Assembly (NCBI RefSeq): GCF_988242995.1
Contig: NZ_OZ547043.1
DNA length: 64,000 bases
Direction: 5' to 3' (one strand)
Below the pieces are notes generated by a model. The model did not search any database. It saw only the letters and a list, made by a program, of their open reading frames with translations, and was not told the origin of the DNA. A program made the translations under genes and the position numbers. Shown in pieces: positions 15,992 through 59,172 of this stretch; positions within the stretch are counted from its first letter, which is position 1; the number at the start of each line of letters is the position of its first letter.

Positions 15992-15992
15992 C

Positions 15993-27463: not shown

Positions 27464-28744
27464 ATGACCGAACATACCAGCAGTTACTACGCCGCCAGTG
27501 CGAATAAATACGCGCCATTCGACACGCTGAATGAGTCGATTTCCTGCGACGTTTGCGTGGTCGGTGGCGGCTATACCGGGCTGTCTTCCGCGCTGCATCT
27601 GGCGGAAGCGGGCTTTGACGTGGTGGTTCTTGAAGCCTCACGCATCGGCTTCGGCGCAAGCGGACGCAACGGCGGGCAGCTTGTGAACTCCTACAGCCGC
27701 GACATCGACGTCATTGAAAAAAGCTACGGCATGGACACCGCCCGTATGCTCGGCAGCATGATGTTCGAAGGCGGCGAGATCATCCGCGAACGTATCAAAC
27801 GTTATCAGATTGACTGCGACTACCGCCCCGGCGGCCTGTTTGTGGCGATGAATGATAAACAGCTCGCGACTCTGGAAGAGCAGAAAGAGAACTGGGAACG
27901 CTACGGCAATAAACAGCTGGAGCTGCTGGACGCCAACGCTATTCGCCGCGAGGTCGCCAGCGATCGCTACACTGGTGCGCTTCTGGATCACAGCGGTGGG
28001 CATATTCATCCGCTAAACCTCGCCATTGGCGAAGCGGACGCCATCCGCCTGAACGGAGGGCGCGTGTATGAGCTTTCTGCCGTGACGCAGATCCAGCACA
28101 CCACGCCAGCCGTGGTGCGGACTGCCAATGGTCAGGTGACGGCGAAGTATGTGATTGTCGCCGGGAATGCGTATCTGGGCGATAAAGTAGAGCCGGAACT
28201 AGCGAAACGCAGCATGCCGTGCGGCACGCAGGTGATCACCACCGAGCGGCTGTCGGAAGATTTAGCTCGTTCGCTGATCCCGAAAAACTACTGCGTGGAA
28301 GACTGTAACTATCTGCTTGATTACTATCGTCTTACCGCCGATAACCGCCTGCTGTACGGCGGCGGCGTGGTCTACGGCGCGCGCGACCCGGACGATGTTG
28401 AGCGCCTTGTGGTGCCGAAACTGCTGAAAACCTTCCCGCAACTGAAGGGCGTGAAAATTGATTACCGCTGGACGGGCAACTTCCTGCTGACCCTGTCACG
28501 CATGCCGCAGTTTGGTCGCCTCGATACCAACATCTACTACATGCAGGGCTACAGCGGCCACGGCGTCACCTGTACCCACCTCGCCGGGCGTTTGATTGCT
28601 GAACTGCTGCGCGGTGACGCCGAGCGTTTCGATGCCTTCGCCAATCTGCCGCATTACCCGTTCCCCGGCGGGCGCACGCTGCGCGTTCCGTTTACCGCGA
28701 TGGGCGCGGCTTATTACAGCCTGCGCGATCGTCTGGGCGTTTAA
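27464..28744 (+). CDS. puuB: Gamma-glutamylputrescine oxidase PuuB, 426 aa
   Basis: FAD-dependent oxidoreductase with GGGYTG dinucleotide motif. Confidence 0.9.
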   Translation: MTEHTSSYYAASANKYAPFDTLNESISCDVCVVGGGYTGLSSALHLAEAGFDVVVLEASRIGFGASGRNGGQLVNSYSRDIDVIEKSYGMDTARMLGSMMFEGGEIIRERIKRYQIDCDYRPGGLFVAMNDKQLATLEEQKENWERYGNKQLELLDANAIRREVASDRYTGALLDHSGGHIHPLNLAIGEADAIRLNGGRVYELSAVTQIQHTTPAVVRTANGQVTAKYVIVAGNAYLGDKVEPELAKRSMPCGTQVITTERLSEDLARSLIPKNYCVEDCNYLLDYYRLTADNRLLYGGGVVYGARDPDDVERLVVPKLLKTFPQLKGVKIDYRWTGNFLLTLSRMPQFGRLDTNIYYMQGYSGHGVTCTHLAGRLIAELLRGDAERFDAFANLPHYPFPGGRTLRVPFTAMGAAYYSLRDRLGV

Positions 28745-28781
28745 TTTCCGATTAACAGTGAAGAGTCAAAAGGTGTGAAAC

Positions 28782-30047
28782 ATGAGCAACAATGAATTCC
28801 ATCAGCGTCGTCTTTCTGCTACCCCACGCGGGGTTGGCGTGATGTGTAACTTCTTCGCCCAGTCGGCAGAAAACGCTACGCTGAAGGACGTAGAGGGCAA
28901 CGAATACATCGATTTCGCCGCAGGCATTGCGGTGCTGAATACCGGGCATCGCCACCCTGATCTGGTCGCGGCGGTGGAGCAGCAATTGCAACAGTTTACC
29001 CACACGGCGTATCAGATTGTGCCGTACGAAAGCTACGTCACGCTGGCGGAGAAAATTAACGCCCTTGCCCCGGTGAGCGGGCAGGCTAAAACTGCGTTCT
29101 TCACCACCGGTGCGGAAGCGGTTGAGAACGCGGTGAAAATCGCCCGCGCCCATACCGGACGCCCTGGCGTGATTGCGTTTAGCGGCGGCTTCCACGGTCG
29201 TACATATATGACCATGGCGCTGACCGGAAAGGTCGCGCCGTACAAAATCGGCTTCGGCCCGTTCCCCGGTTCGGTGTATCACGTACCTTATCCGTCAGAT
29301 TTACATGGCGTTTCAACGCAGGACTCCCTCGACGCCATCGAACGCTTGTTTAAATCGGACATTGAAGCGAAGCAGGTGGCGGCGATTATTTTCGAACCGG
29401 TGCAGGGCGAAGGCGGTTTCAACGTTGCACCAAAAGAGCTGGTTGCCGCCATTCGCCGCCTGTGCGACGAGCACGGCATTGTGATGATTGCCGATGAAGT
29501 GCAAAGCGGTTTTGCGCGTACCGGCAAACTGTTTGCCATGGATCACTATGCCGATAAGCCGGACTTAATGACGATGGCGAAAAGCCTCGCAGGCGGGATG
29601 CCGCTTTCGGGCGTGGTCGGTAACGCGAATATTATGGACGCGCCCGCGCCGGGCGGGTTGGGTGGTACTTACGCCGGGAACCCGCTGGCGGTGGCTGCCG
29701 CGCACGCTGTGCTCAACATTATCGACAAAGAATCACTCTGTGAACGCGCGAATCAACTGGGCCAGCGCCTGACAAACACGTTGATTGATGCCAAAGAAAG
29801 CGTTCCGGCCATCGCGGCGGTACGCGGTCTGGGGTCTATGATTGCGGCAGAGTTTAACGATCCGCAAACGGGCGAGCCGTCAGCGGCGATTGCACAGAAA
29901 ATCCAGCAACGCGCGCTGGCGCAGGGGCTGCTTCTGCTGACCTGTGGCGCATACGGCAACGTGATTCGTTTCCTGTATCCGCTGACCATCCCGGATGCGC
30001 AATTCGATGCGGCAATGAAAATTTTGCAGGATGCGCTGAACGATTAA
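28782..30047 (+). CDS. puuE: 4-aminobutyrate aminotransferase PuuE, 421 aa
   Basis: Class-III PLP aminotransferase; end of puu cluster. Confidence 0.9.
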   Translation: MSNNEFHQRRLSATPRGVGVMCNFFAQSAENATLKDVEGNEYIDFAAGIAVLNTGHRHPDLVAAVEQQLQQFTHTAYQIVPYESYVTLAEKINALAPVSGQAKTAFFTTGAEAVENAVKIARAHTGRPGVIAFSGGFHGRTYMTMALTGKVAPYKIGFGPFPGSVYHVPYPSDLHGVSTQDSLDAIERLFKSDIEAKQVAAIIFEPVQGEGGFNVAPKELVAAIRRLCDEHGIVMIADEVQSGFARTGKLFAMDHYADKPDLMTMAKSLAGGMPLSGVVGNANIMDAPAPGGLGGTYAGNPLAVAAAHAVLNIIDKESLCERANQLGQRLTNTLIDAKESVPAIAAVRGLGSMIAAEFNDPQTGEPSAAIAQKIQQRALAQGLLLLTCGAYGNVIRFLYPLTIPDAQFDAAMKILQDALND

Positions 30048-30655
30048 TAGCCCAACGCAATAATGTCTGATGCGCTGCGCTTATCAGGCCTGCAAACGAC
30101 GTATTGATTATGTATGCCGGACAAAGCATTCTGAACTGCACCCCAAATGTTGGACATAATCTGACATCTGAAGGTGCAGTTTATGAAACATTCATTTGAA
30201 GTAAAACTTGCCGCTGTAAATCATTACCTGGCTGGTCATGCAGGCATCATTTCTACGGCAAAACTCTTTCAACTTTCTCACACCAGCCTCTCACACTGGA
30301 TTAATCTTTTTCTTCTTCACGGTCCTCGGGCACTGGATTGCAGACACAAGCGTAGCTATTCTCCTGAAGATAAACTTTGCGTGGTTCTTTATGCTCTCGG
30401 GCATTCTGAGTCTCTACCCCGGGTAGCTGCCCGGTTTAACATTCCCAGCCACAACACGGTTAAAAACTGGATAAAAGGCTACCGCAAATCTGGTAATGAG
30501 GCCTTTATCAGGCGCAGGAAGGAGAAAAGCATGACCCGTTCTGATGATACCCATGAAAACGAGGCAAACATGACGCCGGAAGAGATGAAGAATGAGCTGC
30601 GTTATCTTCGCGCAGAAAATGCATATCTGAAAGCCATGCAGGAGCATCTCCTGGA

Positions 30656-31563
<908 letters not shown>

Positions 31564-31602
31564 ATTCACGCCGCATCCGGCAAGTTGTATTGCCCAACTT
31601 CG

Positions 31603-32580
31603 CTAAATCTGGTGCTTTTTCAACAACGCGCGGAACTGATGATAGGTTAACCCCAGTAATTTAGCCGCGCGCTTCTGGTTATATTTCCCTTGTTGCAAAC
31701 TGAGTTGCAGCAACTCTTTTTCCTGCTGCATCTGAAACTCACGTAAATCCAGCGGCAGTGTTGGAAGCGAGGTGGTTTCTGAAACGGCGATAGCGTCTTC
31801 AGGCGGACGCCGTTTAAAGGGATCAATAATAATGTCATCAAGCGGATAATCGCTGGTGCCATGGCGATATACTGAACGTTCCACCACGTTTTTCAATTCA
31901 CGAATATTTCCCGGCCAGCGATAATTCAGCAATGTTTCTCTGGCGCGCTCCGTAAACCCCGGGAACAGAGGCAGCTTGATTTCCCGACACATCTGAATGG
32001 CAAAGTGTTCTGCCATCAGCATAATGTCGCTTTCGCGCTCGCGCAGGGGCGGCAGTTGCACTACATCGAAAGCCAGCCGGTCGAGCAGGTCAGCGCGAAA
32101 AGTACCTTCATTGACCATCGCCGGGAGATCGGCATTCGTCGCGCATACCAACCGCACATTCACCTGCAATGGCTGGCTGCCGCCAACGCGCTCCAGTTCA
32201 CCGTACTCAATCACGCGCAATAATTTCTCCTGCACCATCATCGGTGCCGTAGCGAGTTCATCAAGAAATAGCGTACCGCCGTCGGCACGTTCAAATCTCC
32301 CTGGATGACGTTTTTGCGCACCGGTAAACGCGCCCGCTTCGTGACCAAACAGTTCGGAATCCAGCAGATTTTCATTTAACGCCGCGCAGTTAAGGGAAAT
32401 AAACGGCCCCTGCCAACGGGAGGAGAGATAATGCAGACGGCTGGCAATCAGCTCTTTACCTGTGCCGCGCTCGCCGATGATGAGCACCGGTTTGTCCAGC
32501 GGTGCGAGATGCGAAACCTGTTCCAGCACTTCGAGAAAGCTGTTTGCCTCACCAAGTAAATTATCTTTGTATTCTGCCAT
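31603..32580 (-). CDS. pspF: Sigma-54 enhancer-binding activator PspF, 325 aa
   Basis: AAA+ sigma-54 activator motifs (GERGTGKE, GAFTGA); start MAEYKDNLLGE; divergent from pspA. Confidence 0.9.
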   Translation of the reverse strand: MAEYKDNLLGEANSFLEVLEQVSHLAPLDKPVLIIGERGTGKELIASRLHYLSSRWQGPFISLNCAALNENLLDSELFGHEAGAFTGAQKRHPGRFERADGGTLFLDELATAPMMVQEKLLRVIEYGELERVGGSQPLQVNVRLVCATNADLPAMVNEGTFRADLLDRLAFDVVQLPPLRERESDIMLMAEHFAIQMCREIKLPLFPGFTERARETLLNYRWPGNIRELKNVVERSVYRHGTSDYPLDDIIIDPFKRRPPEDAIAVSETTSLPTLPLDLREFQMQQEKELLQLSLQQGKYNQKRAAKLLGLTYHQFRALLKKHQI

Positions 32581-32674
32581 GATGAAATTCGCCACTTGTT
32601 AGTGTAATTCGCTAACTCATCCTGGCATGTTGCTGTTGATTCTTCAATCAGATCTTTATAAATCAAAAAGATAA

Positions 32675-33415
<741 letters not shown>

Positions 33416-33468
33416 TAACATCCAGGCGGCGTCCGAACGCGCCGCCGCTCATCGTCTAAGGAGTCCTT

Positions 33469-33693
33469 ATGAGCGCGCTATTTCTGGCTATTCCGTTAAC
33501 CATTTTTGTGCTGTTTGTTTTACCGATCTGGTTATGGCTGCATTACAGCAATCGTTCTGGTCGCAGTGAATTGTCGCAAAGTGAGCAGCAGCGATTAGCG
33601 CAACTGGCTGATGAAGCAAAACGGATGCGCGAACGTATTCAGGCGCTGGAATCCATTCTTGATGCAGAACATCCGAACTGGAGGGATCGCTAA
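33469..33693 (+). CDS. pspB: Phage shock protein B, 74 aa
   Basis: Single-transmembrane small protein MSALFLAIPLTIFVLFVLPIWLWLHY. Confidence 0.9.
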   Translation: MSALFLAIPLTIFVLFVLPIWLWLHYSNRSGRSELSQSEQQRLAQLADEAKRMRERIQALESILDAEHPNWRDR

Positions 33694-34052
33694 TGGCGGG
33701 CATTAATCTCAATAAAAAATTATGGCGTATTCCACAGCAGGGTATGGTACGCGGCGTCTGCGCCGGGATTGCCAACTATTTTGATGTACCAGTAAAACTG
33801 GTGCGTATCCTGGTGGTGCTGTCGATTTTCTTCGGTCTGGCGCTGTTTACCCTGGTTGCTTACATCATTTTGTCATTTGCGCTTGATCCAATGCCGGACA
33901 ACATGGCCTTTGGTGAGCAGCTACCTTCCAGCAGCGAATTGCTGGATGAAGTCGACCGTGAACTGGCGGCAAGTGAAACGCGTTTACGCGAGATGGAACG
34001 TTATGTCACTTCCGATACTTTCACGTTACGTAGCCGTTTCCGTCAACTGTGA
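33693..34052 (+). CDS. pspC: Phage shock protein C, 119 aa
   Basis: Start overlaps the pspB stop; PspC family. Confidence 0.9.
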
Positions 34053-34060
34053 GGAAAGTT

Positions 34061-34282
34061 ATGAATACTCGCTGGCAACAGGCCGGGCAAAAGGTGAAGC
34101 CTGGTTTCAAATTAGCAGGCAAGCTGGTACTTCTTACCGCACTGCGCTATGGCCCGGCGGGTGTAGCTGGCTGGGCGATAAAATCAGTTGCTCGCCGACC
34201 ACTGAAAATGTTGCTGGCCGTGGCGCTGGAACCGCTGTTAAGTCGGGCTGCCAATAAACTGGCGCAGCGTTATAAAAGGTGA
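34061..34282 (+). CDS. pspD: Phage shock protein D, ~73 aa
   Basis: Start [20 protein letters not shown]; operon context. Confidence 0.85.
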
Positions 34283-34356
34283 GGGGAGTTTCGCAAAAAT
34301 TGTTAAAGCTAAGGCATATTATGGATGGCAATTTTCATCCATAGAAGGACGCTTAC

Positions 34357-34671
34357 ATGTTTAAAAAAGGCTTACTTGCTCTGACACTGGTGTTTTCACT
34401 GCCCGTTTTCGCCGCTGAACACTGGATCGATGTTCGTGTTCCAGAGCAGTATCAGCAAGAGCACGTTCAGGGGGCCATCAATATTCCCCTGAAGGAAGTA
34501 AAAGAGCGCATTGCCACCGCCGTTTCGGATAAAAACGACACCGTGAAAGTGTATTGCAATGCCGGACGCCAGTCAGGGCAGGCAAAAGAGATCCTTAGCG
34601 AGATGGGATATACTCACGTTGAGAACGCCGGTGGCCTGAAAGACATCGCAATGCCGAAGGTCAAAGGTTAA
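34357..34671 (+). CDS. pspE: Thiosulfate sulfurtransferase (rhodanese) PspE, 104 aa
   Basis: Signal peptide plus rhodanese active-site region (VKVYCNAGRQS). Confidence 0.9.
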   Translation: MFKKGLLALTLVFSLPVFAAEHWIDVRVPEQYQQEHVQGAINIPLKEVKERIATAVSDKNDTVKVYCNAGRQSGQAKEILSEMGYTHVENAGGLKDIAMPKVKG

Positions 34672-34713
34672 CAAATTACTTATTGAGCGGTGTAAACAAC
34701 GCCGCTTATTCAT

Positions 34714-34739
34714 TTGATAAATCAAAATTAACCCACATT
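34714..34739 (+). promoter_or_regulatory. Candidate sigma-32 (heat-shock) promoter of ycjX
   Basis: TTGATAA ... CCCACATT resembles the sigma-32 consensus (TTGAAA / CCCCATnT) ~50 bp upstream of ycjX; spacing approximate. Confidence 0.35.
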
Positions 34740-34789
34740 ATTATCTCCAGTATCTAATCCTTTCTACAGCTTTCTGGCACAGGACAGCA

Positions 34790-36187
34790 ATGAAGCGACT
34801 TAAAAATGAACTCAATGCGCTGGTGAATCGGGGTGTCGACAGACATCTGCGCCTCGCTGTAACCGGACTTAGCCGTAGCGGCAAAACAGCGTTTATCACC
34901 GCGATGGTTAATCAGTTGCTCAATATTCATGCCGGAGCACGTTTGCCGCTTTTAAGTGCGGTGCGTGAAGAGCGCCTGCTGGGCGTAAAACGCATTCCCC
35001 AGCGTGACTTTGGCATTCCGCGCTTCACCTATGATGAAGGACTGGCGCAGTTATATGGCGATCCTCCTGCCTGGCCGACGCCAACGCGCGGCGTCAGTGA
35101 AATCCGCCTGGCGCTACGTTTTAAATCGAACGATTCGCTGCTACGCCACTTCAAGGACACCTCCACGCTGTATCTGGAGATTGTGGATTATCCCGGCGAA
35201 TGGCTGCTCGATCTGCCGATGTTGGCGCAGGACTATTTAAGCTGGTCGCGCCAGATGACGGGCTTACTTAATGGTCAGCGCGGCGAATGGTCGGGGAAAT
35301 GGCGAATGATGTGCGAAGGGCTGGACCCGCTAGCGCCTGCCGACGAAAACCGGCTGGCAGACATTGCCGCTGCGTGGACCGATTATCTCCACCACTGTAA
35401 ACAGCAGGGGCTGCACTTTATTCAGCCAGGGCGCTTTGTCTTGCCGGGAGATATGGCAGGTGCGCCCGCGCTGCAATTCTTCCCGTGGCCGGATATCGAT
35501 GCCTGGGGCGAGTCCAAACTGGCGCAGGCCGATAAGCATACCAATGCCGGAATGCTGCGCGAGCGGTTTAATTATTACTGCGAGAAAGTGGTGAAGGGGT
35601 TCTATAAGAATCATTTTCTGCGCTTTGACCGCCAGATTGTGCTGGTGGATTGCCTGCAGCCTCTCAACAGTGGGCCACAGGCATTTAATGATATGCGTCT
35701 GGCGCTGACGCAGCTGATGCAAAGTTTCCACTACGGGCAGCGAACCCTGTTCCGGCGTTTGTTTTCGCCGGTTATCGATAAGCTATTGTTTGCTGCCACT
35801 AAAGCAGACCATGTGACCATCGATCAGCACGCCAATATGGTTTCATTACTGCAACAACTAATTCAGGATGCCTGGCAAAATGCGGCGTTCGAAGGGATCA
35901 GCATGGATTGCCTGGGGCTGGCGTCTGTTCAGGCGACCACCAGCGGAATTATTGATGTTAACGGTGAGAAAATCCCGGCGCTGCGCGGTAATCGACTCAG
36001 CGATGGCGCACCGCTCACTGTTTATCCTGGCGAAGTTCCCGCACGTTTGCCAGGTCAGGCGTTCTGGGATAAGCAAGGCTTCCAGTTTGAGGCGTTTCGT
36101 CCGCAGGTGATGGATGTCGACAAACCGCTGCCGCATATTCGTCTTGATGCTGCGCTGGAATTTTTAATAGGAGATAAATTGCGATGA
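34790..36187 (+). CDS. ycjX: YcjX, P-loop NTPase (DUF463), 465 aa
   Basis: Walker A GLSRSGKT; matches E. coli YcjX length. Confidence 0.88.
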
Positions 36188-37245
36188 CCGAACCGTTAAA
36201 ACCACGTATTGATTTCGACGGTCCACTGGAGGTTGATCAGAATCCAAAATTCAGGGCGCAACAGACCTTTGACGAAAATCAGGCGCAAAATTTTGCCCCG
36301 GCCACGCTCGACGAAGCGCAGGAAGAAGAGGGGCAAGTTGAAGCGGTGATGGACGCAGCGTTACGTCCGAAACGCAGCCTGTGGCGCAAAATGGTGATGG
36401 GCGGGTTGGCTCTGTTTGGCGCAAGCGTTGTCGGGCAGGGCGTGCAGTGGACAATGAACGCCTGGCAAACTCAGGATTGGGTAGCGCTGGGTGGATGTGC
36501 CGCTGGGGCATTGATTATCGGCGCTGGCGTAGGTTCTGTGGTAACAGAGTGGCGGCGCTTATGGCGCTTGCGACAGCGCGCCCATGAACGCGACGAAGCG
36601 CGCGATTTGTTGCACAGTCACGGTACGGGTAAAGGCCGCGCATTTTGCGAAAAACTGGCGCAGCAGGCGGGCATCGACCAGTCGCATCCGGCACTGCAAC
36701 GCTGGTATGCCTCAATCCATGAAACGCAAAACGATCGTGAAGTGGTCAGCCTGTATGCTCATCTGGTCCAGCCGGTTTTAGATGCCCAGGCGCGGCGCGA
36801 AATCAGCCGTTCGGCGGCGGAATCAACGTTGATGATTGCGGTCAGCCCGCTGGCGCTGGTGGATATGGCATTTATCGCCTGGCGCAATCTGCGTTTGATC
36901 AATCGCATCGCCACGCTGTATGGCATTGAACTGGGATATTACAGCCGTTTGCGCCTGTTTAAGCTGGTATTGCTGAATATCGCTTTCGCCGGAGCCAGCG
37001 AACTGGTGCGCGAAGTGGGGATGGACTGGATGTCGCAAGATCTCGCTGCGCGTTTGTCTACCCGGGCAGCTCAGGGGATTGGTGCAGGACTTCTGACGGC
37101 ACGACTGGGGATTAAAGCTATGGAGCTTTGCCGCCCTCTGCCGTGGATTGACGATGACAAACCTCGCCTCGGGGATTTCCGTCGTCAGCTTATCGGTCAG
37201 GTGAAAGAGACGCTGCAAAAAGGCAAAACGCCCAGCGAAAAATAA
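36184..37245 (+). CDS. ycjF: YcjF, inner-membrane protein (UPF0283), 353 aa
   Basis: Start overlaps the ycjX stop; membrane protein of the ycjXF pair. Confidence 0.88.
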
Positions 37246-37304
37246 TGCAATATCGGGTGCTGACCGGATATCTTTACGCCGAAGTGCCCGTTTTTCCGTC
37301 TTTG

Positions 37305-37322
37305 TGTCAATGATTGTTGACA
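37305..37322 (+). promoter_or_regulatory. TyrR box (TGTCAA-N6-TTGACA) in the tyrR promoter
   Basis: Near-consensus TyrR box palindrome ~70 bp upstream of the tyrR ATG. Confidence 0.6.
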
Positions 37323-37392
37323 GAAACCTTCCTGCTATCCAAATAGTGTCATATCATCATATTAATTGTTCTTTTTTCAGGTGAAGGTTCCC

Positions 37393-38934
37393 ATGCGTCT
37401 GGAAGTCTTTTGTGAAGACCGACTCGGTCTGACCCGCGAATTACTCGATCTACTCGTGCTAAGAGGCATTGATTTACGCGGTATTGAGATTGACCCCATT
37501 GGGCGAATCTACCTCAATTTTGCTGAACTGGAGTTTGAGAGTTTCAGCAGTCTGATGGCCGAAATACGCCGTATTGCAGGTGTTACCGATGTCCGTACTG
37601 TCCCGTGGATGCCTTCTGAACGTGAGCATCTGGCGTTGAGCGCGTTACTGGAAGCGTTGCCTGAACCTGTGCTCTCTGTCGATATGAAAAGCAAAGTGGA
37701 TATGGCGAACCCGGCGAGCTGTCAGCTTTTTGGGCAAAAATTGGATCGCCTGCGCAACCATACCGCCGCGCAATTGATTAACGGCTTTAATTTTTTGCGT
37801 TGGCTGGAAAGCGAACCGCAGGATTCGCATAACGAGCATGTCGTTATTAATGGGCAGAATTTCCTGATGGAGATTACGCCTGTTTATCTTCAGGATGAAA
37901 ATGATCAACACGTCCTGACCGGTGCGGTGGTGATGTTGCGATCAACGATTCGTATGGGTCGTCAGTTGCAAAATGTCGCCGCCCAGGACGTCAGCGCCTT
38001 TAGTCAAATTGTCGCCGTCAGCCCGAAAATGAAGCATGTTGTCGAACAGGCGCAGAAACTGGCGATGCTAAGCGCGCCATTGCTGATAACCGGTGATACC
38101 GGCACCGGAAAAGATCTCTTTGCGTATGCCTGTCATCAGGCAAGCCCACGCGCGGGCAAACCCTATCTGGCGCTGAACTGTGCTTCTATCCCGGAAGATG
38201 CGGTCGAGAGTGAACTGTTTGGTCATGCTCCGGAAGGGAAGAAAGGGTTCTTTGAGCAGGCGAACGGTGGTTCGGTACTGCTGGATGAAATAGGTGAGAT
38301 GTCACCACGGATGCAGGCGAAATTACTGCGTTTCCTTAATGATGGCACTTTCCGTCGGGTTGGCGAAGACCATGAGGTGCATGTCGATGTGCGGGTGATT
38401 TGCGCTACGCAGAAGAATCTGGTCGAACTGGTGCAAAAAGGCGTGTTCCGTGAAGATCTCTATTATCGTCTGAACGTGTTGACGCTCAATCTGCCGCCGC
38501 TACGTGACTGTCCGCAGGACATCATGCCTTTAACCGAGCTGTTCGTCGCCCGCTTTGCCGACGAGCAGGGCGTGCCGCGTCCGAAACTGGCCGCTGACCT
38601 GAATACTGTACTTACGCGTTATGCGTGGCCGGGAAATGTGCGGCAGTTAAAGAACGCTATTTATCGCGCACTAACACAACTGGACGGTTATGAGCTGCGT
38701 CCTCAGGATATTTTGTTGCCGGATTATGACGCCGCAACGGTAGCCGTGGGCGAAGATGCGATGGAAGGTTCGCTGGACGAAATCACCAGCCGTTTTGAAC
38801 GCTCGGTATTAACCCAGCTTTATCGCAATTATCCCAGCACGCGCAAACTGGCAAAACGTCTCGGCGTTTCGCATACCGCGATTGCCAATAAGTTGCGGGA
38901 ATATGGTCTGAGTCAGAAGAAGAACGAAGAGTAA
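37393..38934 (+). CDS. tyrR: Transcriptional regulator TyrR, 513 aa
   Basis: Start MRLEVFCEDRLGLTRELLDLLVLRGIDLRGIEIDPIGRIYLNF; AAA+ domain with C-terminal HTH. Confidence 0.93.
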   Translation: MRLEVFCEDRLGLTRELLDLLVLRGIDLRGIEIDPIGRIYLNFAELEFESFSSLMAEIRRIAGVTDVRTVPWMPSEREHLALSALLEALPEPVLSVDMKSKVDMANPASCQLFGQKLDRLRNHTAAQLINGFNFLRWLESEPQDSHNEHVVINGQNFLMEITPVYLQDENDQHVLTGAVVMLRSTIRMGRQLQNVAAQDVSAFSQIVAVSPKMKHVVEQAQKLAMLSAPLLITGDTGTGKDLFAYACHQASPRAGKPYLALNCASIPEDAVESELFGHAPEGKKGFFEQANGGSVLLDEIGEMSPRMQAKLLRFLNDGTFRRVGEDHEVHVDVRVICATQKNLVELVQKGVFREDLYYRLNVLTLNLPPLRDCPQDIMPLTELFVARFADEQGVPRPKLAADLNTVLTRYAWPGNVRQLKNAIYRALTQLDGYELRPQDILLPDYDAATVAVGEDAMEGSLDEITSRFERSVLTQLYRNYPSTRKLAKRLGVSHTAIANKLREYGLSQKKNEE

Positions 38935-38940
38935 GCGCGA

Positions 38941-38973
38941 ATATGCCTGATGGTGCAACACCATCAGGCATAT
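38941..38973. terminator. Bidirectional terminator hairpin between tyrR and tpx
   Basis: ATATGCCTGATGGTG-caa-CACCATCAGGCATAT perfect 15-bp arms between convergent stops. Confidence 0.6.
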
Positions 38974-38977
38974 TAAC

Positions 38978-39484
38978 TTATGCTTTCAGTACAGCCAGAG
39001 CTGCTTCGTAATCCGGCTCGGTGGTGATTTCATCCACCAGTTGGCTGAAAATCACATTGTCATTTTCATCAATAACCACAACGGCACGCGCTGCCAGACC
39101 TTTCAGTGGGCCATCAGCAATTGCCACACCGTAGGCTTGCAGGAATTCAGCGTTACGGAAAGTGGAGAGGGTGATAACGTTGTTCAGACCTTCTGCGCCG
39201 CAGAAACGAGACTGGGCGAACGGCAGATCGGCAGAAATACACAGCACAACGGTGTTGTCGATCTCGGTTGCCAGTTGGTTAAACTTACGTACTGATGCGG
39301 CGCAAACACCGGTATCAATACTCGGGAAAATGTTCAGCACTTTGCGTTTACCCGCAAACTGACCGAGGGTGACGTCAGACAGATCTTTTGCCACGAGAGT
39401 AAAAGTCTGCGCTTTGCTACCCGCCTGCGGGATGGAATTGGCGACTGTAACCGGGTTGCCCTGGAAATGAACGGTTTGTGACAT
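38978..39484 (-). CDS. tpx: Thiol peroxidase Tpx, 168 aa
   Basis: [70 protein letters not shown] recognised as Tpx. Confidence 0.93.
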
Positions 39485-39592
39485 GATTATCTTTCCTGTT
39501 TACATATAGTTAACGTCACACCTAGTTTATGCTAACTGTCAATAACACAGCAAACGCTATTTGCGCTTAATCCGCAGACCACCGCGACAACA

Positions 39593-40542
<950 letters not shown>

Positions 40543-40568
<26 letters not shown>

Positions 40569-41271
40569 GATGCCAGCGCAGCAAGTTTGCCATCGCAAAG
40601 AGATATTTTTCGCTGGCTTCGTCGGAGGAGATGGGGGGAAACTCTGCGGTGATGCAATGCAGGTTGAGATCCGCACACCAACTACCGAAAGAGCCAGGTG
40701 TTTCATAACCGACGCTGGTTACCAGAGGCAATTCAAACGCCTGGGCCAGCCATTCGCCTAATTCGCTGTGTCTGGGATCTTCAATACAGGCCAGCGGATC
40801 GTGGAATGAGACCACCCAGGCGGGTTGAATGCGGTGTATAAGCTGGCACAGCGCCTGGGTTTCAGGTTCAGAGCCAGGTTTGTCACCTGTCAGCAATACG
40901 ACATCACGTTCTTCAGCGGCGCTGTTCCAGCGATAAACGGTTTCACCTTCCTTCCAGTTCGCCGCCGGAAAGTTTCTGTTTAAATCCACACCATTAGCAT
41001 TGGCCCGTAACCCCAACTGGCAGCCGTCAGGATTCACACACAGCACCACATGATGGCGGCGCAAAGACGGTGTCAAAGTCCGCAGAGCACAGGAGAGCGT
41101 GACGACCGAAGAGTTTTCATCACCGTGAGTGCCAGCCAGAATCAAACCACTTTCGCGGCTGGCTGCAGGGGCCGGAAACCAGATTAACGGCGCGCCCAAT
41201 AATGAACGTCCGTAATGTTCTGTTCCGGGCGGAAATGCGCCGCGTTCGGCGCGTGGGCGAGTTACGGTCAT
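40543..41271 (-). CDS. mpaA: Murein peptide amidase A (gamma-D-Glu-Dap amidase), 242 aa
   Basis: Zinc carboxypeptidase-like; start MTVTRPRAERG; 3' end overlaps ycjG by 26 bp. Confidence 0.88.
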
Positions 41272-41516
41272 GATCGTCTCTGGTTCAGGAAGTATTACAG
41301 GCAGTGTTGTGCAAATTTTGCGGATTATCAAATCCTTTTCTTCAACGCTATGTCATCGATCTTGTATCACCTTTTTGCCGGAAGTTGTTTGCATTTTCAT
41401 TGATGGTCAGATATTAGAATTGTCGTAATGTTATATACATGGCGTATTTTATTCTTACTGGTTCTACACATGTTAATCGCATCTGATTGATCAGTTCACC
41501 TTAATAAGTTTAATAA

Positions 41517-41543
41517 ATCGTACTGCACATAGTACAGTACGAT
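41517..41543 (-). terminator. Candidate terminator of the ymjC-like gene
   Basis: 9-bp perfect stem ATCGTACTG/CAGTACGAT with 9-nt loop, followed on the minus strand by UUAUUAAAC. Confidence 0.4.
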
Positions 41544-41561
41544 GGTAGCTATATAATTGAT

Positions 41562-42200
41562 TTACATGAAGAATGGCTTGTCGCCATCAGTCCCGGGTTG
41601 ATTGATTCCTATATTCTCACCAATGTGTTTCTCAGGTTTATCGATGATATCTGTAATTAATGCTGCGACACTCTTACGTGATACGATCGTACCTTTGAAT
41701 GGTTCATTGCGTGAGGTAAGCTCATAATCAATAATATCTTCATCGGTCAGCCAGGCAGGGCGAAGAATTGTATATTCCAGTCCAGAAGCCTCAATTGCAT
41801 CCGCAGCCCTGCGGAATGGTTTTAGGGGTTCACCAATAACTGCATTATTCCATTCGCCAAATTTTCCTGGAACTTCATCATAAATACCGAGGGAAAGAAC
41901 AAAGATCAGACGTTTAACATCACAGGCTTTCATCGCAGCGATCACTGAATTTGCCTGAATATCTAAATCTTCCCCCGTAAGGTTGGCATACACAACATCC
42001 TGTCCCTGCATGGCCTGCTTCAGTGCTGCATGATTCAGTACATCCCCCATAATAATCTTGCTATTAGTGGGATAGGGTTTGTGGATTTTTGCTGGCTGAC
42101 GGGCAAATAAAGTTTGTTTAATGGTTTGTTTATCTGCCAGTTGATTAATCACATGGCGGGCTATCTGACCGCCAGCACCAAGAATCAGTACATTTTTCAT
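41562..42200 (-). CDS. ymjC: NAD(P)-binding (NmrA/atypical SDR-like) oxidoreductase, 212 aa; intact counterpart of K-12 ymjC
   Basis: Rossmann motif LILGAGGQIA near the N-terminus; full-length ORF between mpaA and ycjY. Confidence 0.65.
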   Translation of the reverse strand: MKNVLILGAGGQIARHVINQLADKQTIKQTLFARQPAKIHKPYPTNSKIIMGDVLNHAALKQAMQGQDVVYANLTGEDLDIQANSVIAAMKACDVKRLIFVLSLGIYDEVPGKFGEWNNAVIGEPLKPFRRAADAIEASGLEYTILRPAWLTDEDIIDYELTSRNEPFKGTIVSRKSVAALITDIIDKPEKHIGENIGINQPGTDGDKPFFM

Positions 42201-43328: not shown

Positions 43329-44228
43329 ATGAAGCGTGAAGAAATCGCTGATCTGATGGCGTTTGTCGTCGTTGCAGAGGAGCGTAGCTTCACTCGCGCA
43401 GCAGCCCGCCTGAGCATGGCGCAGTCAGCTTTAAGCCAGATAGTGCGCCGTATAGAAGAACGATTGGGATTGCGGCTTCTGACGCGAACCACGCGCAGCG
43501 TTGTACCCACTGAAGCGGGCGAGCATCTTTTGTCTGTTCTTGGCCCTATGTTGCATGACATAGATTCTGCCCTGACATCCCTGAGCGATCTGCAGAACCG
43601 CCCATCCGGGACAATACGTATTACTACTGTAGAACATGCAGCAAAAACGATATTGTTACCAGCTATGCGCACATTCCTGAAATCGCATCCTGAAATTGAT
43701 ATCCAGCTTACCATTGATTATGGTTTGACCGATGTCGTTTCTGAACGTTTTGATGCAGGCGTCCGTCTGGGTGGGGAGATGGATAAAGATATGATCGCCA
43801 TTCGAATCGGGCCAGATATACCAATGGCTATTGTTGGCTCACCGGATTATTTTTCTCGTCGAAGTGCTCCAACGTCAGTGTCACAATTAATAGATCATCA
43901 GGCAATTAATTTGTATCTTCCCACATCGGGTACAGCAAATCGCTGGAGATTAATACGCGGTGGACGTGAAGTTCGTGTTCGCATGGAAGGTCAGCTTTTA
44001 CTGAATACGATAGACCTGATCATTGATGCTGCAATTGATGGGCATGGATTGGCGTATCTACCTTATGATCAGGTTGAGCGGGCTATTAAAGAAAAAAAAC
44101 TGATACGTGTTTTGGATAAATTCACACCAGATTTACCCGGTTATCACCTGTACTATCCACACCGTCGACATGCTGGCTCGGCATTCTCATTATTTATAGA
44201 TAGGCTGAAGTATAAAGGTGCTGTTTAG
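43329..44228 (+). CDS. pgrR: LysR-type regulator PgrR (YcjZ), 299 aa
   Basis: LysR HTH (FTRAAARLSMAQSALSQIVRRIEERLGLRLLTR); divergent from ycjY. Confidence 0.88.
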   Translation: MKREEIADLMAFVVVAEERSFTRAAARLSMAQSALSQIVRRIEERLGLRLLTRTTRSVVPTEAGEHLLSVLGPMLHDIDSALTSLSDLQNRPSGTIRITTVEHAAKTILLPAMRTFLKSHPEIDIQLTIDYGLTDVVSERFDAGVRLGGEMDKDMIAIRIGPDIPMAIVGSPDYFSRRSAPTSVSQLIDHQAINLYLPTSGTANRWRLIRGGREVRVRMEGQLLLNTIDLIIDAAIDGHGLAYLPYDQVERAIKEKKLIRVLDKFTPDLPGYHLYYPHRRHAGSAFSLFIDRLKYKGAV

Positions 44229-44564
44229 CACTACTTGCTGATACATTAATTTAATTCTTCTCTTAACGTATTCTCAGTTCCTTTCAACGTTTTGGTCATT
44301 TTTTATTCTTCGTACAATGGCGACAGATGCTGATTATGATACCGAAAACGGGTTTGAACGTGCGAAGCCCGAACGTAGTGTTCGGAGTTCTATGTGCTTT
44401 ACCGCATTTTGGAGACTATTATTTACACTAAATCTGATTTGATATATTGATACTTAAAACATTTGATGCTTCCTTTGTCACTTTTTTGATGGAAGTTGTT
44501 TGCATTTCTTTAAGGCGAAACAAATAATTACGCATCAATTTTAATGTCGGTTAGAGGGAAACTT

Positions 44565-46178
44565 ATGAAGCACTCTGTTTCAGTCACGTGTTGTGCGCTG
44601 TTGGTCAGCAGCATTTCTCTTTCGTATGCTGCTGAAGTTCCGAGCGGCACAGTACTGGCAGAGAAGCAGGAGCTGGTGCGCCACATTAAAGATGAGCCAG
44701 CGTCGCTGGATCCCGCTAAAGCCGTGGGCCTGCCGGAGATTCAGGTCATTCGCGATCTGTTTGAAGGACTGGTGAATCAGAACGAGAAAGGGGAGATTGT
44801 CCCCGGCGTTGCGACTCAGTGGAAAAGTAATGACAACCGTATCTGGACTTTTACCCTGCGCGATAACGCAAAATGGGCGGATGGCACACCGGTAACGACG
44901 CAAGATTTTGTCTACAGCTGGCAACGTCTGGTGGACCCAAAAACATTGTCGCCATTTGCATGGTTTGCCGCGCTGGCGGGAATCAACAACGCACAGGCGA
45001 TTATTGATGGTAAAGCCACGCCTGACCAGCTTGGCGTCACCGCAGTTGATGCCCATACTTTGAAAATCCAGCTTGATAAACCGTTGCCGTGGTTTGTGAA
45101 TTTAACCGCTAACTTTGCCTTCTTCCCGGTGCAAAAAGCCAACGTAGAAAGCAGTAAAGAGTGGACGAAACCCGGAAATCTGATCGGCAATGGCGCTTAT
45201 GTTCTTAAAGAGCGCGTAGTCAATGAAAAACTGGTCGTGGTACCGAATACCCATTATTGGGATAACGCCAAAACGGTGCTGCAAAAAGTGACCTTCCTGC
45301 CAATTAATCAGGAATCCGCAGCCACTAAGCGTTACCTCGCGGGGGATATTGATATCACCGAATCCTTCCCGAAAAATATGTATCAGAAGCTGTTGAAGGA
45401 TATTCCGGGGCAGGTTTATACGCCGCCGCAGCTCGGGACCTATTATTATGCGTTTAACACGCAAAAAGGGCCGACGGCCGATCAGCGTGTTCGCCTGGCA
45501 TTAAGTATGACGATAGATCGCCGCCTGATGACCGAAAAAGTGTTGGGGACGGGGGAAAAGCCAGCGTGGCATTTTACACCAGATGTTACTGCCGGTTTTA
45601 CGCCGGAGCCTTCGCCGTTTGAACAAATGAGTCAGGAAGAACTGAATGCGCAGGCAAAAACTTTGTTGAGCGCAGCTGGTTATGGTCCGCAAAAACCGCT
45701 GAAGCTGACGCTTTTGTATAACACTTCAGAAAACCATCAAAAAATTGCGATTGCTGTAGCATCGATGTGGAAAAAGAACCTTGGCGTAGATGTTAAATTG
45801 CAGAATCAGGAATGGAAAACCTATATCGATAGCCGTAACACCGGCAATTTTGATGTTATCCGCGCCTCATGGGTAGGGGATTATAATGAACCCTCCACTT
45901 TCCTTACGTTGTTAACGTCAACGCATTCAGGGAATATTTCACGCTTTAACAATCCGGCATACGACAAAGTACTGGCCCAGGCATCAACGGAAAATACCGT
46001 TAAAGCGCGTAATGCCGATTACAATGCGGCAGAAAAAATCCTCATGGAGCAAGCACCGATTGCACCAATTTATCAATATACCAATGGACGATTAATCAAG
46101 CCGTGGCTGAAAGGTTATCCCATTAATAACCCGGAAGATGTGGCGTACAGTCGGACTATGTATATTGTGAAGCATTGA
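44565..46178 (+). CDS. mppA: Periplasmic murein tripeptide-binding protein MppA, 537 aa
   Basis: OppA-like solute-binding protein with signal peptide; start MKHSVSVTCCALLVSSISLSYA. Confidence 0.9.
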   Translation: MKHSVSVTCCALLVSSISLSYAAEVPSGTVLAEKQELVRHIKDEPASLDPAKAVGLPEIQVIRDLFEGLVNQNEKGEIVPGVATQWKSNDNRIWTFTLRDNAKWADGTPVTTQDFVYSWQRLVDPKTLSPFAWFAALAGINNAQAIIDGKATPDQLGVTAVDAHTLKIQLDKPLPWFVNLTANFAFFPVQKANVESSKEWTKPGNLIGNGAYVLKERVVNEKLVVVPNTHYWDNAKTVLQKVTFLPINQESAATKRYLAGDIDITESFPKNMYQKLLKDIPGQVYTPPQLGTYYYAFNTQKGPTADQRVRLALSMTIDRRLMTEKVLGTGEKPAWHFTPDVTAGFTPEPSPFEQMSQEELNAQAKTLLSAAGYGPQKPLKLTLLYNTSENHQKIAIAVASMWKKNLGVDVKLQNQEWKTYIDSRNTGNFDVIRASWVGDYNEPSTFLTLLTSTHSGNISRFNNPAYDKVLAQASTENTVKARNADYNAAEKILMEQAPIAPIYQYTNGRLIKPWLKGYPINNPEDVAYSRTMYIVKH

Positions 46179-46228
46179 TGTGATGGGAATTGGCGTTACC
46201 CTTGTGGATAACGCCAGTGATGTCTGAT

Positions 46229-47260
46229 TTAGCGACCCTGGTCCGGCGGTGTAATGTTATCCATATACAGCGTCTGGCTGGGGAAGGCAAAGTCCGCGCC
46301 GTGTGACTGTACAATATCGATAATCTTCAAATAAACGTCTTGCTGTGCAGCAAGCCATTCAGCCCATACCGTGGTTTTGGTAAAGCAATAAACCATAATA
46401 TTTAATGACGAATCGGCAAACTGGTTGAAATAAACCAGTAAGGTTTGTCGCTGGTCGATGGCCGGGTGATTTTTCAGCATCTCACGTACGGCTTCGACAA
46501 TAACGCCCACTTTTGCCGCATCCTCATAACGTAAACCAATGGTCGTGGTAATGCGCCGGTTGGTCATTCGTCCAGGATTTTCTACGCTGATCGACGAAAA
46601 CAGCGAGTTCGGTACGTACAATGGACGATTATCAAAGGTCGTAATTTTGGTAATTCGCCAGCCAATTTCCGCTACTGTACCTTCGATATTTCTGTCCGGT
46701 GAACGGATCCAGTCGCCAATACTAAAAGGACGGTCGAAATAGAGCATAATCCCGGAAAAGAAGTTACTCAGAATATCTTTACCGGCCATACCGACAGCCA
46801 GACCACCAATACCACCAAAGGTCAACAAGCCAGAAAGGCTCATGCCGAAATGTTCGCCATAAAGCAGAACAAGCACCACAATAATGGTGATTTTGATGAT
46901 ACGCGACATAATCCGCGCACTGGTGATATCGCGACCTTTTTTAATCTGCTGTTTTTCAAACTGATTAATCAGCAGAAATAGCTTAATCGTCAGAATAACC
47001 GCAATCAGGGACGTACAGATAAAATCGATAACGCCTGGGGTGATAAATTTGAGTTTATAGTTTTCTATAACATAATTAATGATGCTACCAACAGCACTGA
47101 TAATTATGGTGTAGATTAAAAATTGCACCGCATGGAATAAAAAACCTTTTCTTTTACGATTTCCGCGGCGAAACCAAAAGCTCATCAGAATCAATGCTGC
47201 GCAGCTACCGAAAATAATGACCAGATTAAGCGCATTATTTGTAAACAGTTCAGCGATCAT
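46229..47260 (-). CDS. ynaI: MscS-family mechanosensitive channel YnaI, 343 aa
   Basis: MscS-like transmembrane and beta domains; 343 aa as in E. coli YnaI. Confidence 0.88.
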
Positions 47261-47503
47261 TGTTTTATCAGGCTCCTCCAGATAATTGTCGTCATGCCGG
47301 AAACCCCTGGCGGGGCTATTTTACCGCGACAATTCATTCAGATCATCAATAGTCAGGGAAGGAAGTAGCAACATTAGCTAACTAATCAATGCGTTGATTG
47401 TAAATCCAGCTAAGAGGTAAGGTTTTCAGAGCAGACAACGGTAAAATGTCATGGTATTGTTACGTTTAGGTAACAAGAAATTTGTCTGCACAAGGATTAC
47501 ATC

Positions 47504-47761
47504 ATGATTATGGCGAAACTGAAGTCAGCGAAAGGGAAGAAATTTCTCTTTGGTTTGTTGGCGGTTTTCATTATTGCGGCGTCGGTTGTGACTCGCGCGA
47601 CCATCGGCGGCGTTATAGAACAGTACAATATTCCGCTGTCTGAGTGGACGACATCAATGTATGTGATTCAGTCATCGATGATTTTTGTTTATAGCCTGGT
47701 CTTTACTGTGTTGCTGGCAATACCGTTGGGAATTTATTTTCTTGGCGGCGAAGAGCAGTAA
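47504..47761 (+). CDS. ynaJ: Small membrane protein YnaJ, 85 aa
   Basis: 85-aa two-helix ORF; divergent from ynaI; bidirectional terminator downstream (47772-47795). Confidence 0.8.
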   Translation: MIMAKLKSAKGKKFLFGLLAVFIIAASVVTRATIGGVIEQYNIPLSEWTTSMYVIQSSMIFVYSLVFTVLLAIPLGIYFLGGEEQ

Positions 47762-47810
47762 GTAAAAAATAGGCCCGATAACTCGGGCCTTGTCAGTTAT
47801 TGAAGAGTCG

Positions 47811-48761
47811 TTAATCGTCTTCTTCGTCATCCAGTTCAACGGGTGTCTGATACTGGTCAGGTTTAATGACCAGCAGGTCGCAGCGAAGATGATCAATCAC
47901 CTGTTCCGCCGTGTTGCCGAGGAATGCTGCTGAAATACCGGTGCGTCCGACCGTGCCCAGAACCACAATCCCCGCCTGTAAATGCTCCGCCAAATCAGGA
48001 ATCACCTCTTCTGGCAGACCTTTTTCTACGTGCGTCATGTTTTCATTAATGCCGAATTTCTGCCGCAGGGCTTTCATTGCCAGCAAATGTTGCCCACGAA
48101 TGGCATCGTTATAAACGCTCGGATCAAATTCCGGCAGTTCAATCGCGATATTAATTGGCGTTACCGGATAAGCGCCAACCAGATGAACTTCAGTATGGTT
48201 GACTTGTTCTGCCAGTTCGATCGTCTCTTTGACCAGTTTTTCATTGAGCGCATTATGGTACGGCTCTTCACTGGCGAGATTCACCGCCACCAGCGCCTTA
48301 CCCCCTTCCGGCCACGGCTGGTCTTTCACCATCCACACCGGGCTTGGGCATTTGCGTAACAGATGCCAGTCCGTTGGCGTAAAAATCACCGCTTCCAGAC
48401 GGTCATGTTGGTGCGCCATTTTTAGCACCAAATCGTGCCCGCCGCTGATCACTTCCTGAATGATGGCTTCGAAAGGACGGTTATGCCAGACCACTTTAAT
48501 TTCAATGGGAACGCCAGCATTGAGATAATATTTTGCCTGCTCGTGGATCCAGGCTGTACGCTGGCTGATGACGCCCTGACGCATAGCGGTACGTTCGTCC
48601 GGAGAGAGCAGGGTGGTCATTTCGTATGAGAAGTCATAGATCGGCAAAAAGGCTTTAATTTTGCCACCAATCCGTTGATGTAAATAAACAGCTCGCCGCA
48701 ATGCTGGTTGGTCGTCCTGGTTAGGATCGATAACAACGAGCATGTTCTGATACATAGCCAT
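47811..48761 (-). CDS. uspE: Universal stress protein E (tandem Usp domains), 316 aa
   Basis: Start [27 protein letters not shown]; tandem UspA domains. Confidence 0.9.
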
Positions 48762-48912
48762 ACAGGGTCTCCTTACAACAACTGTCAACGCAGTTTGTAA
48801 TTAAAAGATTAACCCATATCTGGTGAATGAAACAGTGATGAACCTTCTGCCAGATCAATAAATCAGAAAAATTTAATGATATGACAGAAGGATAGTGAGT
48901 TATGCGGAAAAA

Positions 48913-49665
48913 TCAGGCAACGTTACGCGTATGACCAGCAAGCTGGGCCAGCGCATCGTTATTTTCGATGGTGATGTATTTACCTTTGACTGCCAGCATA
49001 CCGCTTTTCTGGAAGCGACCCAGCAGACGGCTGATGGTTTCTACCGTCAGGCCCAGATAGTTACCGATATCGCCACGAGTCATCGTCAGGCGGAATTCAC
49101 GAGGGGAGAAGCCGCGTTGGGCAAAACGACGGGACAGGTTGTAGATGAATGCAGCCAGACGTTCCTCGGCATTTTTCTTCGACAACAGCAGGATCATGTC
49201 CTGATCGCCTTTGATTTCACCGCTCATCAGACGCATCATCTGCTGACGCAGATTCGGCATTTTACCGGACAAATCGTCCAGCGTTTCGAACGGGATTTCA
49301 CATACCATCGAGGTTTCCAGCGCCTGCGCGAAGCTCGGGTGATGACCGCTGCCGATTGCATCAAATCCCACCAGGTCACCAGCTAAATGGAAACCAGTGA
49401 TTTGCTCGTCGCCTTGCTCAGTAATGGTATAACTTTTAATCGTACCGGAGCGGATGGCATAAAGCGATTTTAGTTCATCACCAGCCTTAAACAGCGTCTG
49501 GCCTTTCTGAATAGGCTTCTTCCGCTCAATGATATTATCAAGCTGATCAAGCTCATGTTCGTTGAGTGTGAACGGGATGCAAAGCTGGCTGATGCTGCAA
49601 TCCTGGCAATGGATAGCACAACCGCCAGACTGAATGCGCCGTATAATTCGCTTTTCCGGGATCAT
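48913..49665 (-). CDS. fnr: Anaerobic global regulator FNR, 250 aa
   Basis: [42 protein letters not shown]... N-terminal Cys cluster and CRP-family HTH. Confidence 0.95.
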
Positions 49666-49684
49666 AGGTCTGCTCAAGCCGTAA

Positions 49685-49698
49685 TTGATATTTGTCAA
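49685..49698. promoter_or_regulatory. FNR site (TTGATATTTGTCAA) in the fnr promoter
   Basis: Near-consensus TTGAT-N4-ATCAA palindrome 20-33 bp upstream of the fnr start codon. Confidence 0.6.
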
Positions 49699-49859
49699 TT
49701 TTAACATCTTTTTAGGGAGCAAGTAAGTCTAAGCAAACCTTAACAGCAGAGAATTCCGATATTAGATGTAAATATATGTCTATCTATTTGAAAACCCTTA
49801 AGTTGTTAAGGGTAACTTTACATAAAAGTGTGAACAAGCTGGCACAAATTGTTTAATGT

Positions 49860-50375
49860 TTACAGCAAAAGATAACCTTCGTGGCGTAATAACCACTCTT
49901 TTCGCTGAACTCTGCCTGCATATCCGGTCATGGTACCGTTTCTGCCAATGACCCGATGACAAGGCACAACAATGCTGATGGGATTCGATCCATTTGCCGC
50001 ACCTACGGCACGCGCCGCACCGGGGCGGCCCAATTGTTCAGCCAGTTGGCCGTAATGCATTACCTGCCCGCAGGGGATAGTACGTAGTGTTTTCCAGACT
50101 TCGCGCTGAAATGGCGTCCCCCCCGTGGCAGTGGGAAGCGTATCAATAATGCTAAGATTACCGGCAAAATATTCACGAAGCTTGTCACTTAAACCACCTG
50201 GGTTGGTGGCAGAAATGCGTTCATAGCCTTCTTTGCGGTAATGGATGTCCAGCAGCTGCACCATGCGTTCGCTGTACTCTTCCCATTCAACCGCCCGCAG
50301 GCGAAATTGCTCATCGCAAATCACCCACAGTGGACCCAGTGGCGTGACAATTTTTTCTTCAAGTAATCTCAGCAT
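49860..50375 (-). CDS. ogt: O6-methylguanine-DNA methyltransferase Ogt, 171 aa
   Basis: PCHRVIG active-site motif. Confidence 0.92.
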
Positions 50376-50385
50376 CCGTTCTCTC

Positions 50386-51912: not shown

Positions 51913-51948
51913 GGGCATTCCTCGTTTGTTGTGTTTGCGTTGTTGTTG

Positions 51949-54704: not shown

Positions 54705-54879
54705 AACCTTTCCCGTCATCAGTAAAAAGTGTGACCCGGTTCACGTAGCGATAGTTTTTACTTATCACTAACTGATTTTTCACAGTTTTAACCGTTCATA
54801 AATTACCCTGACACAATCATCTGCATTAAAGTAGATGCCAGTTTCTTTGGTCTGATAAATAACGGTTATCGGTGGCGTC

Positions 54880-55788: not shown

Positions 55789-55795
55789 AACTGCA

Positions 55796-56681: not shown

Positions 56682-56701
56682 TCTCGAGACGCATCCGCGG
56701 C

Positions 56702-58167: not shown

Positions 58168-59172
<1,005 letters not shown>

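Follow-up and report, generated by a model that had tools for sequence, protein, structure and literature searches.

To our knowledge, a functional link between the psp genes and ycjXF has long been suspected and never shown. In Yersinia, pspABCD-ycjXF has been described as a single operon (PMC3467454). Across species, Huvet et al. 2010 found that 32 of 81 psp operon structures were extended by ycjX, and that the physical association and dissociation of psp and ycjX were independent in different species (PMC3041696). E. coli K-12 in which ycjW is deleted or mutated expresses more pspE and becomes able to make H2S in a PspE-dependent manner (PMC6599011). The annotated record of K-12 MG1655 places 14,113 bp between the pspE stop and the ycjX start, with the order ycjM, N, O, P, Q, R, S, T, U, ycjV/ymjB (a pseudogene), ompG and ycjW (12-13 genes; b1308-b1321 locus). 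Products named in that record include a glucosylglycerate phosphorylase (ycjM), a kojibiose phosphorylase (ycjT) and guloside/glucoside dehydrogenases with an epimerase (ycjQRS); the block also encodes an ABC transporter, the porin OmpG and the LacI-type repressor YcjW.

The locus studied here lies in a 64-kb stretch of DNA, which we call the window. Similar to Yersinia enterocolitica, the window carries its psp genes directly before ycjX-ycjF; unlike Yersinia, it has pspE and a terminator-like hairpin between pspD and ycjX, as well as a promoter-like element of its own before ycjX. It also resembles K-12 MG1655, in that the flanking genes are 97-98% identical, a hairpin stands at the same place after pspE, and a TTGATAA…CCCACATT core precedes ycjX. 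In contrast, K-12 carries an additional 14,113 bp, along with a strong terminator with nine U and three more promoter bases, and its regulator YcjW has no equivalent at the window locus. Whereas Huvet et al. compared species, variation of this kind segregates here within a single one, E. coli, and the insert that dissociates psp from ycjX is the ycj/ompG block.

The genes of the locus belong to well-characterised families, and the psp, YcjX and YcjF proteins of the window are 98-100% identical to their K-12 counterparts. They are arranged as follows:

31603-32595, minus strand: pspF, sigma-54 activator of the psp operon (NCBIfam NF008622, 4.7e-205; 99% identical to K-12 PspF); a K-12-type start would fall at 32580
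32747-33415, plus strand: pspA (NCBIfam equivalog; 100% protein identity to K-12)
33469-33693, plus strand: pspB (NCBIfam equivalog; 100% protein identity to K-12)
33693-34052, plus strand: pspC (NCBIfam equivalog; 100% protein identity to K-12)
34061-34282, plus strand: pspD (NCBIfam equivalog; 100% protein identity to K-12)
34357-34671, plus strand: pspE, periplasmic rhodanese (thiosulfate sulfurtransferase), 104 aa (NCBIfam PspE equivalog NF007627, 1.6e-63; 98% identical to K-12 PspE)
34672-34789, plus strand: pspE-ycjX spacer, 118 bp, GC 36%, the empty-site allele of the ycj/ompG island
34790-36187, plus strand: ycjX, DUF463 P-loop protein, full-length, 465 aa (Pfam PF04317 (DUF463/YcjX), 6.7e-181; 99% identical to K-12 YcjX)
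36184-37245, plus strand: ycjF, DUF697 membrane protein, overlapping ycjX by 4 bp (Pfam PF05128, 1.2e-55; 99-100% identical to K-12)
37393-38934, plus strand: tyrR, the end of the conserved ycjX-ycjF-tyrR block (NCBIfam NF008085, 1056 bits; tblastn 37393-38931, 100%)

An earlier note on this DNA had claimed that pspE is followed directly by ycjX, and the two genes, both securely identified by NCBIfam, Pfam and identity to K-12, are indeed separated by exactly 118 bp. Its K-12 map of about twelve genes between pspE and ycjX agrees with the annotated MG1655 record. The note had also described the junction as free of gene fragments and IS scars, and this was borne out: no ORF of at least 60 aa lies wholly within the spacer, and nothing in it is IS-like. 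The hairpin and the candidate ycjX promoter that it had placed in the 118 bp were both recovered as predicted elements, the hairpin at 34684-34708 with a T-rich tail and the promoter-like TTGATA-N16-CATTAT at 34714-34741. When all proteins of the K-12 cluster were searched against the 64-kb window by tblastn, no ycjM-W/ompG homologue was found. The sole matches were two adjacent ABC-transporter ATPase genes at 15236-16946 (minus strand), which are weakly and paralogously similar (23-27% identity) to YcjV. Judging from the relatives of the window, the ycjM-W/ompG genes are probably missing from the remainder of the genome as well.

The spacer would thus hold a predicted pspE terminator, made of a hairpin and a weak U-tract, followed by a predicted ycjX promoter. 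Its elements are:

34684-34708, plus strand: pspE terminator-like hairpin, 10 pairs with a 5-nt loop (terminator scan; folding -14.7 kcal/mol, z = -4.5)
34709-34713, no strand assigned: inferred site of the 14-kb ycjM-ycjW block in K-12-type genomes (alignment; boundaries blurred by divergence)
34714-34741, plus strand: candidate ycjX promoter, with -35 TTGATA at 34714-34719, a 16-nt spacer and a sigma-70-like -10 CATTAT at 34736-34741
34781-34784, plus strand: ycjX ribosome-binding site AGGA, 5 nt before the ATG (read from sequence)

Directly 3′ of the hairpin lies an interrupted U-tract, TTCATTTGAT, at 34709-34718. In K-12 the corresponding stem is of comparable stability (-15.8 kcal/mol) and runs into nine consecutive U, as opposed to the interrupted tail UUAUUCAUUU of the window. 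Since the stems are similar and only the U-tracts differ in this way, the pspE terminator of the window is probably leakier than that of K-12. The hairpin is kept, with a G-U to G-C change, in E. albertii and in a cryptic Escherichia (L004), making three Escherichia species in all; the L004 genome, which is labelled E. coli, shares ~90-93% identity with K-12 and likewise with the window. Rfam, scanned over 29500-37500 at E ≤ 1, gave no match, and thus no known sRNA or riboswitch is recognised in the spacer.

The candidate promoter is less clear-cut. In a sigma-70 consensus scan, TTGATA-N16-CATTAT scored 9/12, which alone is not significant (expected 1.0±1.3 per region). TTGATAA is conserved, its distance from ycjX unchanged, in E. 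albertii, L004, Citrobacter, Enterobacter, Lelliottia and K-12. A sigma-32-like -10 remnant, ACCCACAT, overlaps the candidate at 34731-34738, only 11 nt after the -35. The sigma-32 consensus attributed to Nonaka 2006 reportedly consists of a CTTGAAA-like -35 and a CCCCATnT-like -10 lying ~13-15 nt apart. The K-12 arrangement, TTGATA-N14-CCCCACAT, fits this consensus, whereas TTGATA-N11-ACCCACAT of the window is three bases shorter than K-12 and, against the same consensus, has the weaker -10. The K-12 region (L001 19036-19066) owes its sigma-32-like spacing to three additional bases that the empty-site allele lacks between TTGATA and the CCCCA motif; the empty-site allele of the window, E. albertii and L004 instead fits the sigma-70-like TTGATA-N16-CATTAT. 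From these motifs, the two alleles may differ in heat-shock control of ycjXF. A sigma-32 promoter of ycjX has been reported for K-12 (PMC3041696, citing Nonaka 2006). When the DNA upstream of ycjX was searched with a regular expression for a sigma-32-type motif, only 7 of the 79 loci listed matched, as well as K-12, and the window did not; a conserved sigma-32 promoter at the window's ycjX was dropped on this account.

Allele frequencies were obtained from 5,426 complete E. coli genomes in RefSeq. A 601-bp query across the junction was contiguous in 372 of them and split in the others, and the spacer alone (115 bp query) was likewise found in 372 genomes, every match having at least 99% identity, one per genome and on the chromosome only. 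Any part of the K-12 block was detected in 5,051 genomes; together with the 372, this accounts for all 5,423 genomes in which the locus is present. Sensitive blastn detected ycjT-ycjU in 4,994 genomes, which leaves ~57 with an incomplete block. With ycjT-ycjU in only 4,994 genomes, there is no sign that diverged or relocated copies in empty-site genomes inflated the count. The earlier note's reading of a clean presence/absence polymorphism therefore stands, with both states at one chromosomal position (372 empty and 5,051 filled), and the check that it had proposed, alignment of the junction to K-12 and other E. coli, returned the 14,113-bp block in the former and the 118-bp spacer in 372 of the 5,426. 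It is an ordinary, common gene-content difference, of a kind already catalogued as pan-genome variation.

The empty-site group makes up ~7% of sequenced E. coli and includes the enteroaggregative strain (EAEC) 042, which we take to belong to phylogroup D. Over 28-42 kb, the nearest relatives of the window include EAEC 042, N3 and ST2747, and this, along with flanks that are 97-98% identical to K-12, agrees with the note's further suggestion of a non-K-12 lineage. E. coli 042, N3, ST2747 and ~370 other complete RefSeq genomes share the order puuE-pspF-pspABCDE-ycjX-ycjF-tyrR-tpx and have a spacer that is 99-100% identical. Compared with genomes of the 042/N3/ST2747 type, the window is 98.7-99.3% identical over the surrounding 12-16 kb and has an extra IS1397-like element between puuE and pspF. 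The best matches among the 5,426 genomes reached only 98.9% (28000-42000) and 99.3% (44000-60000), which means that the lineage of the window is not closely represented, though it groups with 042-like genomes. In a neighbouring 16-kb segment, ~370 genomes matched at 99% identity or above, several of them the same strains as in the spacer search; a number so near the 372 of the spacer, with overlapping strains, fits a single clade. Our literature search found no published statement on the clade distribution of the ycjM/ompG block by phylogroup.

Which of the two states is the older was addressed with an outgroup survey of one genome per species with YcjX, giving 80 listed loci that were annotated by tblastn. 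The Escherichia outgroups in this set are two species, with E. fergusonii, other cryptic clades and Salmonella absent from the 80 loci listed. In most of these loci, from Enterobacterales, Vibrionaceae and Aeromonas, the psp genes lie immediately 5′ of ycjX-ycjF(-tyrR); the Enterobacterales with this order include Yersinia, Serratia, Erwinia, Pantoea, Photorhabdus, Proteus, Kluyvera and Enterobacter asburiae. pspE itself adjoins ycjX in E. albertii (L003), the cryptic Escherichia L004 and Citrobacter youngae, and a ycj block occurs in only 7 of the 80 loci listed. The window's spacer is collinear from end to end, hairpin and TTGATAA included, with its counterparts in E. albertii (109/126 identical) and L004 (112/124). 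Its identity to them is 86-90%, and that of the flanking genes is 89-93%. As the spacer is about as diverged as its flanks, it is evidently orthologous, vertically inherited DNA.

Comparison with K-12 gave a matching picture. The window's flanks show an ordinary 2-3% divergence with no spike beside the junction: 9 differences fall in the final 372 bp of the left flank, and 10 in the opening 300 bp of ycjX. From 34777 onward the sequence is again nearly identical to that of K-12. In pairwise local alignment, which was used because a multiple alignment with the joined left and right K-12 flanks was not clean, ~95 bp of the spacer could not be matched closely to either of these flanks. Based on the adjacency in outgroups, the collinear spacer at flank-level divergence and the ~95 bp without a K-12 counterpart, we consider it very probable that the window carries the ancestral, never-interrupted psp-ycjXF-tyrR locus and that the K-12 block is a derived insertion. 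By these sequence comparisons, the block's absence from the window is best taken as ancestral, not as a loss relative to K-12.

The block itself has features that accord with this polarity. Its left and right boundaries are identical in K-12, ABU 83972 (presumably phylogroup B2) and an O157:H7 strain, and the divergence among the three blocks, 3.2-4.7%, equals that of the neighbouring 800 bp of ycjX. The shared boundaries and the equal divergence of block and ycjX indicate that the K-12-type block probably goes back to one old insertion, and an insertion shared by three E. coli lineages and as diverged as its flanks would predate much of E. coli diversification. The GC content of the block (51%) is that of its flanks. 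The K-12 left flank retains the pspE stop codon and the terminator at the equivalent place, and the right flank retains TTGATAA…CCCACATT…GCACAGGACAGCAATG; with the terminator kept on one side and the promoter core on the other, the block would sit between the two, at about 34709-34713 of the window. Pairwise local alignment showed the DNA between ycjW and ycjX in K-12 to be homologous, over its full length, to the corresponding spacer of Enterobacter and Lelliottia. This Enterobacter-like intergenic region suggests that homologous recombination, with its anchor in ycjX, brought in the block along with its own ycjX promoter region.

We propose the following history. The common ancestor of Escherichia, and of groups far beyond it, would have had the psp operon directly before ycjX-ycjF-tyrR. 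Later, in the line of descent of most E. coli, the ~14-kb block would have entered the locus behind the pspE terminator and ahead of the ycjX promoter, probably by the homologous recombination just described. The lineage of the window, that is, the ~7% of sequenced E. coli that include EAEC 042, would have kept the empty allele by vertical descent, either by separating from the other lineages ahead of the insertion or through a long coexistence of the two alleles.

Of the alternatives, the one that survives best, though we regard it as improbable, is secondary replacement, in which the ancestor of the clade carried the block and recombination with an empty-site Escherichia or E. coli donor restored the empty allele. 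An insertion as old as the divergence of K-12, ABU 83972 and O157:H7 leaves room for the window's clade to descend from a carrier, and recombination anchored in pspE and ycjX is plausible, as the K-12 allele seems to have arrived that way. However, neither pspE nor the 5′ end of ycjX shows elevated divergence from other E. coli, and therefore a donor from another species can be ruled out, and with it an import of this allele across species. An E. coli donor with similar flanks could have left an outcome indistinguishable from primary absence, and an event of this sort falls under the same low probability. Relative to E. albertii and L004, moreover, spacer and flanks are equally diverged, and the 372 genomes share one haplotype at 99% identity or above, with the ~370 genomes of the neighbouring 16 kb fitting one clade, all of which speaks against replacement and for the primary absence that we favor.

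Simple deletion, whereby a K-12-like locus lost 14 kb by an illegitimate or IS-mediated event and the 118 bp was left over, is very unlikely. Deletions within the block do occur, as seen in ETEC1739 and TW08637 and in the ~57 genomes with a partial block. Nevertheless, a spacer with ~95 bp absent from both K-12 flanks cannot arise by deleting DNA from a K-12-like locus, and the same spacer is collinear with that of other Escherichia. A deletion scar is built only from the two sides of the deleted segment, and documented deletions leave truncated genes and IS1; the junction has unmatched DNA, no gene fragment and no IS, and was rejected as a scar. In ETEC1739 (L086 2984-4312), an IS1-mediated deletion has shortened pspE to 276 nt and left a ycjW remnant. 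TW08637 (L087 1334-9004) has lost ycjT-ompG by an internal deletion and has its ycjM interrupted by a stop codon, O157:H7 N8B7-2 (L085 1010-3994) has a frameshifted ycjM and a stop codon in ycjN, and in K-12 (L001 15822-16903) ycjV/ymjB is a broken pseudogene. Based on such deletions, frameshifts and stops in its carriers, the block is evidently dispensable and decaying, and none of these four decay events resembles the clean 118-bp spacer. An assembly artefact, that is, a collapsed or mis-joined contig, can be practically discounted, as 372 independently finished genomes contain the very same junction.

If the empty site is ancestral, as we hold, the perspective on this locus is corrected: K-12 would represent the derived state and the compact pspE-ycjX junction the original one. 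The lineage of the window would be without the kojibiose/guloside/glucosylglycerate pathway, the associated ABC transporter, OmpG and YcjW repression, and with ycjW absent, YcjW control of pspE could not exist there. Results obtained with K-12 on YcjW-dependent pspE expression and H2S (PMC6599011), on OmpG and on the kojibiose/guloside/glucosylglycerate enzymes would thus be inapplicable to ~7% of E. coli, among them the enteroaggregative reference strain 042. Strains with the empty site, in which psp and ycjXF are physically coupled, offer a natural system for testing their co-regulation. By analogy with the Yersinia operon described above, we can speculate that the weak-looking pspE terminator lets PspF/sigma-54 transcription reach ycjX-ycjF, which would place YcjXF in the phage-shock response of ~7% of E. 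coli and not of K-12, with pspE escaping the YcjW-linked 'emergency' H2S control; we consider this doubtful. If such read-through were true, the 14-kb insert would have uncoupled YcjXF from psp in K-12. Presence or absence of the block can also serve as a simple lineage marker. These consequences are modest and should come as no surprise to a specialist.

Two further observations concern the surroundings of the junction. The position of the block differs by genus. In E. coli it lies between pspE and ycjX; in two Citrobacter (Citrobacter sp. FP75, L026, and C. werkmanii, L060; 340-9850) it lies upstream of pspE, in the order ycjW-pspE-ycjX; and in Enterobacter cloacae, Lelliottia and Superficieibacter (L006, L009, L019, L072; 1-9850) it abuts ycjX, with no pspE between ycjW and ycjX. 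Such variable placement suggests a hot spot at which insertions or rearrangements have recurred. The other observation is an IS3-family element of 1,432 bp at 30132-31563, between puuE and pspF and 3 kb upstream of the junction, which is missing in K-12 and N3. It carries ORFs at 30174-30704 (HTH) and 30809-31531 (rve integrase core), is bounded by the inverted repeats TGAACTGCACCCC and TGAACTGAACCCC and a 4-bp ATTC duplication, and has as its target a REP/palindromic unit of the puuE-pspF spacer. The element is 99.2% identical to one annotated as 'IS3-like element IS1397 family transposase' that occupies the same spacer, in the opposite orientation, in E. coli GF43.
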